From Escherichia coli (GTDB lineage Bacteria; Pseudomonadota; Gammaproteobacteria; Enterobacterales; Enterobacteriaceae), in NCBI RefSeq assembly GCF_024502345.1, contig NZ_JALDNN010000001.1: a DNA stretch of 64,000 nucleotides; one strand, given 5' to 3'. This document shows positions 33,038-50,224 of this stretch, piece by piece (within the stretch, counting starts at the first letter, position 1; each line of letters begins with the position of its first letter). The notes under the pieces were generated by a model. That model did not search any database. It had not been told where the DNA came from and saw nothing but the letters and a program-made list of their open reading frames with translations. Made by a program: the position numbers and the translations under genes.

Positions 33038-34156
33038 TTACCAGGCCGGGATCATAACTAACAAAACGTATCCCACCAGCGCCGCCCACAACAGCATCGG
33101 TATTGAATAGAGATGGAAACGCCACCAGATGCGGCGATCGTTCGCCATACGTAGCGCAATCAAATTTGCCAGCGATCCTGGTAATAAACCAAAGCCCCCC
33201 ACGTTTACCGCCCATACCAGTAATAAAGACGGCGGCACATAGTTCAGCAACAATATGGTACTCGGCACGTTACTGATCACCTGCGATAAACCGATTGCCG
33301 TTAACCATAACCCGGGTTCAGATAGATGACTCACGTTACCCAACACGCCTTGCAACGCTGGAAGCTGGGTCAGTAAATGGACGTCGATAAACATCGCCAT
33401 AAACACCAGCAGCAGCGTCCAGTCCACACTGAGCACCACGCGACGTGCCAGCAGCGCAAAGCCCACCGCCACAATCACCAGTCCCCACAGCTCTTGTTTT
33501 AACTCCAGCGCCGTCAGAAAGACGATATACAGTCCCAGACAACTCCACACCAGCCGCGGTTTCCACTCCGGCGTTTGCACCCCCGTATGGTATTGCAGCG
33601 CCTTTCCAGGGAAACAACACCAGCACAGGAGCAGGAGCGTCAGCATCATTGCGCCAGCCAGCGGTGCCATTTGGGCAATAAATCCGGCAAACGAAAGACC
33701 AGAACGTCCCCAGATAAGAATATTTTGCGGGTTGCCAATTGGCGTCAGTAGCGAACCAGCGTTGACTGCCAGCGCCTCAAAAATAATCAGCCGATTAACC
33801 GGGATCTCACACAGTCTTTTTAGCGTGATAGTCAGCGGAACAACAATAAACAGCGCGACATCGTTGGTCAGAAAGGTAGAAAGCAGCGCCGCCGCCAGCA
33901 CCATAAACATCGCCAGCCGACGCTCCGTAGCAAAGCGGCGCACCATTTTGCGCCCCAGCACATCAAAATAACCGCTTAACTCCACACCTTTGGTCAGCAG
34001 CATCAGGCCGCTTAAGGTGATGATGGTGTGCCAGTCGATAGCAGCAGGCCAGGATTTCGGTGCAAAGGGCACGAAAACGCTTAATCCGATACCAACAAGA
34101 ATTAATAACTGAAAAAAACGATCGCCTTGCAGCGTGCGTAAAAAAGGCAGGCTCAT
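33038..34156 (-). CDS. ybiR: putative anion transporter YbiR (ArsB/NhaD permease superfamily)
   Basis: 372-aa polytopic membrane protein. Confidence 0.88.
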
Positions 34157-34620
34157 TTGGCACCGTGTTTCTGGGTAAACAAACGAAAAGCGTCGAGCGT
34201 CTCTTCACTAACATGGTGCTCCATGCCTTCCGCGTCGCGACGGGCGATTTCCGGACTGACGCCCAACATCAACAAGAAATTTTCGACTATCTGATGTCGC
34301 TCGCGGCTTTCCTGCGCCAGCTTCTCTCCTTCTGCCGTTAAAAACACGCCACGCCAGGGGATCATTTCAATCAGCCCCATGGTTGCCAGCCGCTTAAGCA
34401 TTTTAGCCACCGTCGGTTGCGAAACTCCCAGACGAGCAGCCATGTCCACCTGACGAGCTTCCCCCACTTCCCTGATCAAGTCAGAAATCAGCTCAACGTA
34501 ATCATCAATAAGCTCGCGCCGATGCGCCTCTCTGACCTGGCGGAACCCTTCAACGTGCTCTTCCACGTTCACTAACTGCGTCACTTTTTTTGCTGTTGGC
34601 GTACCTGCGCGACGACTCAT
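34153..34620 (-). CDS. mntR: manganese-responsive transcriptional regulator MntR (DtxR family)
   Basis: 155-aa ORF; overlaps ybiR start by 4 nt. Confidence 0.92.
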
Positions 34621-34716
34621 TGTGCTTCCTCATTATGGTGACGCATACATAGCGTTCTCATTTCGTGCGCACATTGTAAACCAGAGTTGCGAAGGTACAA
34701 AAAATTAACGTTTTAG

Positions 34717-34745
34717 CAATAGCTATATAATATAGCCTGTGCTAT
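34717..34745. promoter_or_regulatory. candidate MntR operator(s) upstream of mntS
   Basis: inverted repeat ATAGC-ctgt-GCTAT (34732-34745) and adjacent atagctatataatatagc; matches the MntR half-site as I recall it. Confidence 0.5.
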
Positions 34746-34805
34746 ATCTGTATGTAATGCAATCATCCCTCAAGGATCGACGGGATTAGCAAGTCAGGAG
34801 GTCTT

Positions 34806-34934
34806 ATGAATGAGTTCAAGAGGTGTATGCGCGTGTTTAGTCATTCTCCCTTTAAAGTACGGTTAATGCTGCTCTCTATGTTGTGCGATATGGTCAACAA
34901 CAAACCGCAGCAAGATAAACCTTCCGATAAATAG
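34806..34934 (+). CDS. mntS: small protein MntS (42 aa)
   Basis: ATG preceded by AGGAGG at 34794-34799; translation MNEFKRCMRVFSHSPFKVRLMLLSMLCDMVNNKPQQDKPSDK; below the ORF-track size cutoff. Confidence 0.85.
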   Translation: MNEFKRCMRVFSHSPFKVRLMLLSMLCDMVNNKPQQDKPSDK

Positions 34935-35205
34935 CGGCGTCGCGGTACGCCGCTTCACTCCTGCTTTCATGCAGGCATAACGCGTTTTGGTCTGAAAAAC
35001 CCCACTTTTTGTCGGATTTGCAATCCCCTTCGCAAAAGATTTGTTCGTCAGTAGTTGACCTGAACGGCGGCTCGCTCTATCTTCTTGCAGCCCTGCGTAT
35101 ATTGCGGCTCGCGGATGCGGACCCCTTTCCACTCTTCACGCACTCTTGCAGGTATTGACCCTTGACGCCAGGGTAAGCACATGGCGTTTGTTACGATAGT
35201 GGCAT

Positions 35206-36789
35206 ATGAATTTAACCCTCAAAGAATCGCTTGTTACCCGTAGCCGGGTATTTAGCCCGTGGACTGCGTTCTACTTTTTACAGTCGCTATTAATTAACCT
35301 CGGCTTAGGTTACCCCTTCAGTTTGCTCTACACCGCTGCGTTTACGGCTATTTTGCTTTTGCTATGGCGAACATTGCCTCGCGTACAAAAAGTTCTGGTC
35401 GGTGTCAGTTCGCTGGTGGCGGCTTGTTATTTCCCTTTTGCTCAGGCCTACGGCGCGCCTAATTTCAATACATTGCTGGCATTGCACTCCACCAATATGG
35501 AAGAGTCGACCGAAATCCTGACGATTTTTCCGTGGTACAGCTACCTGGTCGGCTTATTTATTTTTGCGCTCGGCGTAATAGCAATCAGGCGAAAAAAAGA
35601 GAATGAAAAAGCGCGCTGGAATACCTTCGACAGCCTGTGTCTGGTATTCAGTGTGGCGACATTTTTTGTTGCTCCCGTGCAAAACCTGGCCTGGGGTGGC
35701 GTATTTAAACTGAAAGATACTGGCTATCCGGTATTTCGTTTTGCTAAGGATGTCATCGTCAATAATAACGAGGTGATTGAAGAGCAAGAACGGATGGCAA
35801 AACTTTCCGGAATGAAAGATACCTGGACGGTCACTGCCGTTAAGCCGAAGTATCAGACCTATGTGGTGGTGATCGGTGAAAGCGCGCGTCGCGATGCCCT
35901 CGGTGCCTTTGGCGGTCACTGGGACAATACCCCGTTTGCCAGCAGCGTTAACGGTTTGATATTTGCTGACTACATTGCCGCCAGTGGCTCCACGCAGAAA
36001 TCGCTTGGCTTAACGCTCAATCGCGTAGTCGATGGCAAACCACAGTTTCAGGATAACTTTGTCACCCTGGCAAATCGCGCGGGCTTCCAGACCTGGTGGT
36101 TTTCCAACCAGGGCCAAATCGGCGAATACGATACTGCTATCGCCAGCATCGCCAAACGTGCAGATGAAGTGTACTTCCTGAAAGAAGGTAATTTTGAAGC
36201 AGATAAAAACACGAAAGACGAAGCGTTACTGGATATGACCGCTCAAGTGCTGGCGCAAGAGCACTCGCAACCGCAGCTGATTGTTCTGCATCTGATGGGC
36301 TCGCATCCGCAGGCCTGCGACAGGACACAAGGCAAATACGAAACCTTTGTGCAATCGAAAGAAACGTCGTGCTATCTCTATACCATGACGCAAACGGACG
36401 ATTTACTGCGCAAGCTGTACGATCAGTTACGCAACAGCGGCAGCAGCTTCTCGCTGGTTTACTTTTCTGACCACGGTCTGGCCTTTAAAGAGCGCGGCAA
36501 AGACGTGCAATACCTTGCCCATGATGATAAATATCAGCAAAATTTCCAGGTGCCTTTTATGGTCATTTCCAGCGACGATAAAGCGCATCGTGTGATTAAA
36601 GCCCGCCGCTCAGCCAATGACTTCTTAGGCTTTTTCTCCCAGTGGACGGGAATTAAAGCGAAGGAAATTAACATCAAATACCCGTTTATATCTGAGAAGA
36701 AAGCCGGGCCGATATACATCACCAACTTCCAGTTACAGAAGGTGGATTACAACCATCTCGGAACCGATATTTTCGACCCGAAACCTTAA
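35206..36789 (+). CDS. opgE: phosphoethanolamine transferase OpgE (YbiP)
   Basis: 527-aa ORF, N-terminal TM helices and C-terminal sulfatase-like domain. Confidence 0.9.
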   Translation: MNLTLKESLVTRSRVFSPWTAFYFLQSLLINLGLGYPFSLLYTAAFTAILLLLWRTLPRVQKVLVGVSSLVAACYFPFAQAYGAPNFNTLLALHSTNMEESTEILTIFPWYSYLVGLFIFALGVIAIRRKKENEKARWNTFDSLCLVFSVATFFVAPVQNLAWGGVFKLKDTGYPVFRFAKDVIVNNNEVIEEQERMAKLSGMKDTWTVTAVKPKYQTYVVVIGESARRDALGAFGGHWDNTPFASSVNGLIFADYIAASGSTQKSLGLTLNRVVDGKPQFQDNFVTLANRAGFQTWWFSNQGQIGEYDTAIASIAKRADEVYFLKEGNFEADKNTKDEALLDMTAQVLAQEHSQPQLIVLHLMGSHPQACDRTQGKYETFVQSKETSCYLYTMTQTDDLLRKLYDQLRNSGSSFSLVYFSDHGLAFKERGKDVQYLAHDDKYQQNFQVPFMVISSDDKAHRVIKARRSANDFLGFFSQWTGIKAKEINIKYPFISEKKAGPIYITNFQLQKVDYNHLGTDIFDPKP

Positions 36790-37353: not shown

Positions 37354-37705
37354 AACCACCTCAAATGTGATTCAAATAAGTCCTAAGTTTTAAATATATC
37401 AAAAATTAATGGGAAACTCTTCGCGATTTGTGATGTCTAACGGGCCATTTCATGTAACAGAACGTTTCCATACACCGCTATCCATCTAAATTTAAATCAC
37501 TTTTTCAGAGAACTGCGTAAGTATTACGCATGTTTTCCCTGTCATTCATCCAGATTATTCCTAATCACCAGACTAATGATTCCATCAATCCTGGCGCATT
37601 TTAGTCAAAACGGGGGAAAATTTTTTCAACAAATGCTCAACCAGCATTGGGTATATCCAGTACACTCCACGCTTTACTTAAGTCTAGATATTTGTGGGAG
37701 AAAGG

Positions 37706-38747: not shown

Positions 38748-39395
<648 letters not shown>

Positions 39396-49997: not shown

Positions 49998-50120
49998 GTA
50001 GGACGGATAAGGCGTTTACGCCGCATCCGGCAACAGATGCCTGATGCGACGCTACCGCGTCTTATCAGGCCTACAAAATCCGAACCGTTGGACGGATCAG
50101 GCGTTTACGCTACGTCCAGC
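49998..50120. repeat. REP element cluster (three REP-like palindromes) downstream of ybiJ
   Basis: gtaggacggataaggcgtttacgccgcatccggc, gcctgatgcgacgctaccgcgtcttatcaggcctac, ggacggatcaggcgtttacgctacgtcc. Confidence 0.8.
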
Positions 50121-50194
50121 ACAAGTATTTCCCTGTCTGTTTGCCGACAGACGCATATGCTCTAACCCTCATTGATCCTATGTTACCCTTGTTT

Positions 50195-50222
50195 GCCCGT
50201 CCGCCACTGGACGGGCTTTTTT

Positions 50223-50224
<2 letters not shown>
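50195..50224 (+). terminator. rho-independent terminator between ybiJ and ybiC
   Basis: gcccgtcc...ggacgggc hairpin followed by T8. Confidence 0.6.

Follow-up and report, generated by a model that had tools for sequence, protein, structure and literature searches.

The window analyzed here is a 64,000-nt stretch of an Escherichia coli contig (NZ_JALDNN010000001.1, RefSeq assembly GCF_024502345.1). Within it, a short open reading frame (ORF) of 42 codons plus a TAG stop lies at 34806-34934 on the plus strand, between mntR (34153-34620, minus strand) and opgE (35206-36789, plus strand; ORF list and annotation). The divergently oriented mntR encodes a DtxR-family manganese-sensing regulator that represses mntS (annotation; Pfam domains Fe_dep_repress and Fe_dep_repr_C). 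A preliminary description made from the letters of the sequence had named the short ORF mntS and placed it between divergent mntR and opgE, and both RefSeq and a protein-family search bear this out. The RefSeq CDS named mntS coincides exactly with 34806-34934, and its product matches the NCBIfam equivalog NF033226 (small_MntS) at a score of 96 bits (cutoff 36; E = 6.3e-28), with residues 1-39 aligning to positions 1-40 of the 41 profile positions. The gene at 34806-34934 is mntS.

We retrieved 136 homologues of MntS, all from Enterobacteriaceae, about 40-44 amino acids long and called MntS by their source databases. A search of the local Pfam-A library returned no match to MntS at E <= 0.1, and yet PF26599 is precomputed for all MntS homologues in a large protein database; this discrepancy probably reflects a difference in library version or filtering and carries no biological signal. 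In E. coli K-12 the corresponding gene (b4705; formerly the sRNA gene rybA, b4416) encodes the same 42-amino acid sequence. The two loci share the gene order ldtB-ybiR-mntR / mntS-opgE-ompX, the Shine-Dalgarno sequence, the operators and the hairpin described below. There are zero differences between the two mntS genes, which are one and the same. The surrounding 10 kb is colinear with MG1655 (99.4% identical), and K-12-type strains, among others, match positions 34600-35250 with 100% identity. This 651-nt query is present in 5421 of the 5426 complete E. coli genomes, and RefSeq annotates mntS in 5421 of the 5426.

The preliminary description also held that real small genes of the window fall under the length threshold of the ORF list. 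That is correct: three K-12 CDSs shorter than 60 amino acids have exact matches here, namely mntS, yliM (21 amino acids, 37406-37471, minus strand, upstream of ompX) and ybiE (19 amino acids, 50097-50156, minus strand). The latter is overlapped on the opposite strand by the sRNA gene zbiJ (50128-50224, plus strand; K-12 annotation).

Taken together, we put the probability at about 97% that the RybA transcript carries a genuine protein-coding gene, mntS, at this ORF, and that mntS is repressed by MntR and has a product that inhibits MntP. The mntS/rybA gene, its control by MntR and its target MntP are all already published, and nothing about them is new at this locus.

Coding sequence and conservation of mntS

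The ATG at 34806-34808 is the first start codon downstream of the preceding in-frame stop, the frame closes with TAG at 34932-34934, and the encoded protein is MNEFKRCMRVFSHSPFKVRLMLLSMLCDMVNNKPQQDKPSDK. As the preliminary description stated, the ATG is preceded by AGGAGG (34796-34801, plus strand, 4 nt before the start codon). Its predicted pairing with the 3' end of 16S rRNA amounts to -11 kcal/mol, and AGGAGG followed by ATG after 3-9 nt occurs just twice in the whole window, counting both strands. The peptide had been called Cys/Met-rich; the Met part of this is right (5 of 42 residues), whereas two Cys among 42 residues make the Cys part an overstatement.

The comparative set was anchored on MntR, not on MntS, in order to avoid circularity, and comprised 80 loci from Enterobacteriaceae, one per species. 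A MntS-like ORF, divergent from mntR and about 185 nt upstream of it, occurs in 77 of these. Two of the other three loci are contig ends, and in the last one (L012, Citrobacter sp. R56) foreign DNA appears to have taken the place of the gene. There, the E. coli-type homology stops inside the second MntR box (ATATAGC and then tttgattt), about 110 nt upstream of mntR, and unrelated AT-rich DNA with its own ORFs lies beyond the break; mntS was not found within 4 kb. We rejected this locus as a counter-example to mntS conservation because of the abrupt end of homology and the foreign AT-rich DNA; in this lineage the segment seems to have been replaced or to have received an insertion.

The ORF is intact in all 77 species, always beginning with ATG, encoding 40-44 amino acids and preceded by a GGAGG-type Shine-Dalgarno sequence. 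The full GGAGG core is present at 76 of the 77 orthologous loci, with Intestinirhabdus alba (AGGAGT; locus L028) as the sole exception. The 77 orthologues share a conserved N-terminal core, MNEFKRC..VF(S/T)HSPF(K/Q)VRL.L..(M/L)(L/I)C, followed by a variable polar tail, and the MntS of the window has all the conserved core positions. The first 31 codons align without gaps, and of the 31 columns at each codon position, 15 vary at position 1, 9 at position 2 and 28 at position 3. Over the same codons, pN/pS (Nei-Gojobori counts against E. coli) is 0.156 in the MntS frame versus 0.39-4.7 in the other five frames. The frame-specific pN/pS and the codon-position bias indicate that purifying selection acts on mntS as a protein-coding gene, and together with the conservation of the ORF they lend independent support to its coding status. 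Direct evidence has been reported in K-12, where tagged MntS expressed from the chromosome was detected under manganese limitation, and where frameshifts at F11 and F16 abolished the manganese-sensitivity phenotype, which is Hfq-independent (PMC4361602).

MntR boxes and the mntS promoter

Two palindromic boxes lie upstream of mntS. Box 2 (34732-34745) is the perfect palindrome ATAGC-CTGT-GCTAT, extends to ATATAGC-N4-GCTATAT at 34730-34747 and covers -7 to +7 when numbered from the annotated 5' end of the transcript. Box 1 (34713-34726; TTAGC-AATA-GCTAT, one mismatch) spans -26 to -13. The preliminary description had located ATAGC-N4-GCTAT correctly but regarded it as a single operator, although a second box lies 19 nt upstream; its proposed footprinting range of 34717-34745 cuts into the left arm of box 1, which starts at 34713. 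Both boxes are found in 76 of 78 sequences (the 77 species loci and the window) with the offset fixed at 19 nt, compared with a background rate for the relaxed core of 0.16 per 200 nt. The TAGC and GCTA arms are invariant across the aligned boxes, and the whole block from 34695 to 34760 is almost invariant in the 77 species.

We placed the promoter from the RefSeq 5' end of rybA (G34739), and the geometry of the boxes relative to the promoter rests on those coordinates. Waters et al. reportedly mapped the 5' end of mntS/rybA and the MntR sites in 2011. From the annotated end we infer a -10 hexamer TATAAT at 34726-34731 (plus strand), 7 nt upstream, which reads TAnAAT across genera. A candidate -35 hexamer, TTAACG at 34705-34710 (plus strand), lies within the block that is near-invariant in 77 species, with a conserved A-tract (34697-34704) ahead of it; this assignment is uncertain given its unusually short 15-nt spacer, which is also why a consensus promoter scan missed the mntS promoter. 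The position of the two boxes over the core promoter suggests that MntR represses by occluding RNA polymerase. Control by MntR, with which the preliminary description had found the palindrome consistent, gains weight from this overlap and from the occurrence of the same motif at mntH, mntP and dps. In published work, mntS is repressed by MntR:Mn (PMC4361602), and a PmntS-egfp reporter is repressed by manganese only when mntR is present (PMC9806134).

The same consensus scan predicts a divergent promoter toward mntR, ATTACA-18-TATATT (34758-34729, minus strand). Its predicted hexamers, which overlap the MntR boxes, fall inside the invariant block, and autoregulation of mntR from an operator shared with mntS is a possibility.

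The stricter pattern WTAGC-N4-GCTAW has three matches in the window versus 0.26 expected, and no more than two in any of 200 shuffles. Two are the boxes at mntS, the third lies at 38829-38842 upstream of dps, and there are none elsewhere in the window. In MG1655 the pattern occurs once at the mntH promoter (aaacATAGCCTTTGCTATgttt) and twice upstream of mntP (TTAGCCAAAGCTAT and ATAGCTTAGGCTAT); those 12 kb contain no further match. These operators and that of dps (ATAGCCGGTGCTAT) are of the same palindrome type as those at mntS; the layouts differ, however. There is a single box at mntH and at dps, as opposed to two at mntS, and the two boxes of mntP precede its ATG by about 370-420 nt, whereas those of mntS lie 19 nt apart over the core promoter. 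Binding of MntR at the mntP promoter raises mntP expression (PMC8632737); the layout at mntS would, unlike that at mntP, point to repression. The box at 38829-38842 is a perfect ATAGC-N4-GCTAT, overlaps the likely -10 of dps (TATACT, 38840-38845) and precedes the ATG of dps (38892) by 50 nt. It fits the repression of dps by MntR-Mn attributed to Yamamoto et al. 2011 in the account given by PMC5553809.

Alternative readings of the ORF and its transcript

The sole ORF of at least 60 amino acids in the mntR-opgE gap is not mntS; it is an 89-amino acid ORF with a GTG start on the opposite strand (34863-35132, minus strand; ORF list), so one could take this as the real gene and the 42-codon ORF as incidental. 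Comparison with relatives speaks otherwise. The antisense ORF is interrupted by in-frame stops in a second E. coli strain, two other Escherichia species, E. albertii and Citrobacter (tblastn), and the median open stretch of its frame over the 77 species is 35 amino acids, as compared with 90 in the window. The antisense codons are in register with those of mntS on the opposite strand, and the antisense frame has a pN/pS of about 1.0 over mntS codons 1-31, which overlap the antisense ORF at 34863-34898 only. Searches of NCBIfam and Pfam gave no match to its product, and RefSeq leaves it unannotated. The patchy nucleotide conservation inside it arises because the ORF crosses the conserved opgE promoter block. 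The antisense ORF is spurious and non-coding, as the preliminary description had judged: it is broken in relatives and its frame is not under selection. It might also be argued that AT-rich intergenic DNA gave rise to both the palindrome and the short ORF by chance, given that 42-codon ORFs are common by the ORF list and that a one-mismatch search for ATAGC-N4-GCTAT is by itself non-significant (3 found versus 1.44 expected; 16 of 100 shuffles reach 3). Chance would, however, hardly keep the ORF intact and under frame-specific purifying selection in all 77 species, next to a near-invariant promoter block, nor would it place all three WTAGC-N4-GCTAW matches at known MntR targets. On these comparative data we consider both readings refuted, each having a negligible probability of being correct.

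A more serious question is whether the transcript acts mainly or additionally as a base-pairing sRNA, in which case the ORF would be of secondary importance or make up half of a dual-function RNA. MG1655 keeps the annotation of a 340-nt ncRNA, rybA, at the locus; its coordinates (852725-853064, minus strand) map to 34739-35078 (plus strand) of the window, with the 5' end at G34739. Northern blotting has shown seven RybA species that share their 5' end and range in length from 205 to about 400 nt, and Martin et al. left a role as an sRNA in other contexts possible (both PMC4361602). As cited in that same article, Gerstle et al. 2012 proposed that RybA, under peroxide stress, regulates genes for aromatic amino-acid biosynthesis. 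Against this, selection at the locus acts clearly on the protein frame, and the known phenotype is sensitive to frameshifts and independent of Hfq, as noted above. An Rfam scan of 34000-36000 at E <= 1 matched no family, the 3' untranslated region past the hairpin (about 34955-35000) shows little conservation in other genera, and in the 5' untranslated region RNAalifold finds only a trivial 4-bp stem, with no consensus structure and weak per-sequence folding signals (median z = -0.9). Looking for the marks of a trans-acting Hfq-dependent sRNA at RybA, we found no curated RNA family, no conserved non-coding structure and no conserved seed. We therefore regard a mainly or additionally RNA-level role as unlikely, and retain the reading of the transcript as the messenger of MntS.

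A small hairpin can be drawn in the 5' untranslated region at 34763-34790, with the arms ATCCC and GGGAT in Escherichia and Citrobacter and CCCTTC and GAAGGG in Enterobacter and Lelliottia. We dropped it as a feature because its folding is shuffle-like (the median z given above) and it is absent from the consensus folding.

MntS function, the 3' end of mntS and the opgE spacer

A GC-rich hairpin with an 8-bp stem and a 6-nt loop overlaps the stop codon (34933-34954, plus strand; arms 34933-34940 and 34947-34954) and is kept across genera. A second small hairpin in the 3' untranslated region, CCUGC-N6-GCAGG (34960-34975, plus strand), is restricted to Escherichia. Folded together, the two have a minimum free energy of -21.9 kcal/mol (z = -3.4 versus dinucleotide shuffles). 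The preliminary description had quoted a hairpin after the stop codon (gcggcgtcgcggtacgccgc, 34935-34954), and it exists; what E. coli does not have is a canonical terminator, as the T-run is missing. In a comparison with loci L006-L081, the tail at 34955-34965 reads TTCACTCC in Escherichia versus TTCATTTTT in most other enterobacterial genera. By its sequence, the hairpin followed by TTCATTTTT qualifies in most genera as a predicted canonical intrinsic terminator, whereas the E. coli hairpin is terminator-like and lacks the T-run. A terminator scan returned no site at the mntS 3' end in E. coli because no T-run follows the hairpin. We infer that decay of the T-run in Escherichia may allow read-through and thus give rise to the long RybA isoforms.

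What MntS does is known from the literature, from which we take its translation, its Mn/MntR-dependent repression and its binding and inhibition of MntP. The manganese sensitivity caused by MntS requires MntP, and binding was demonstrated by two-hybrid assay and reciprocal pull-down; MntS also self-associates at high manganese, and its proposed ancestor is the signal peptide of an MntR-linked SitA (bioRxiv 10.1101/2023.06.02.543501). According to the same work, MntR-linked SitA signal peptides (Rahnella, Sodalis) resemble MntS in their length of 40-45 amino acids, their PF motif and their bihelical model, and a SitA signal peptide expressed alone binds and inhibits MntP as MntS does. MntS differs from them in having neither the AXA cleavage motif nor the mature SitA domain, and in being less hydrophobic (bioRxiv 10.1101/2023.06.02.543501). 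We found no proteins of SitA length among the 136 MntS homologue matches. MntS also resembles the small transporter regulators as a class, which are shorter than 50 amino acids, are induced by a specific ion stress and act by binding a larger membrane transporter (bioRxiv 10.1101/2023.06.02.543501). It stands apart from the class in being predicted to be largely soluble, in inhibiting an exporter and in having no sequence relationship to the others.

Combined with the layout of the locus, these findings suggest the following scheme. When intracellular Mn2+ is high, manganese-loaded MntR would bind the two adjacent palindromic boxes at the mntS promoter, covering the spacer and the edge of the -10 at box 1 (34713-34726) and the transcription start at box 2 (34732-34745), and RNA polymerase would be occluded. 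When manganese is scarce, MntR would leave the DNA and a transcript would be made from about G34739, presumably translated efficiently from the strong AGGAGG Shine-Dalgarno sequence. MntS then binds the manganese exporter MntP and inhibits efflux, and cytoplasmic manganese rises. The GC-rich hairpin at the stop codon may serve as the 3' end or as a stabilizer of the short transcript, and the decayed T-run of E. coli would match the reported family of longer read-through species.

Downstream of mntS, the spacer toward opgE contains blocks conserved across genera at 35016-35037, 35054-35083 and 35158-35192. It includes a conserved inverted repeat, TTTTGC-N10-GCAAAA, and a promoter-like sequence, GTTGAC-17-TATCTT, which is probably the opgE promoter. 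Just before the opgE ATG lie two hairpins that overlap and exclude each other, ACCCT/AGGGT and ACGCCA/TGGCGT, the latter followed by TTTGTT. Stem 1 shows one compensatory pair (A-U to C-G) in 11 sequences and stem 2 is invariant; the Rfam search of 34000-36000 at E <= 1 had no match in this leader region either. We do not claim a structured regulatory RNA here, as the leader is near-invariant and one compensatory pair in 11 sequences is insufficient.

The value of the mntS locus is mainly methodological, since it provides a clean positive control. A threshold of 60 amino acids conceals real genes, as the three annotated CDSs of the window that lie below this cutoff illustrate, and the longest ORF in a gap may mislead, as the antisense ORF does. 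A strong Shine-Dalgarno sequence, an operator palindrome beside a metal regulator and a hairpin after the stop codon, taken together, reliably mark a small regulated gene. The checks of translation and of Mn/MntR-dependent expression that the preliminary description had urged were published years ago. The 77-species set adds a compact view of where the promoter, the operators and the coding sequence are constrained.

The Escherichia-specific loss of the T-run, with possible read-through toward opgE, is the only mildly new observation at this locus. The conserved opgE promoter and leader lie 100-270 nt downstream, and the annotated 340-nt RybA ends inside the opgE promoter block. Through the loss of the T-run, RybA/mntS read-through under manganese limitation might couple to or interfere with opgE, or the long isoforms might have a function at the RNA level; we regard this as highly improbable. 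If true, it would tie opgE, and with it the phosphoethanolamine modification of osmoregulated periplasmic glucans, to MntR and the manganese status of the cell.
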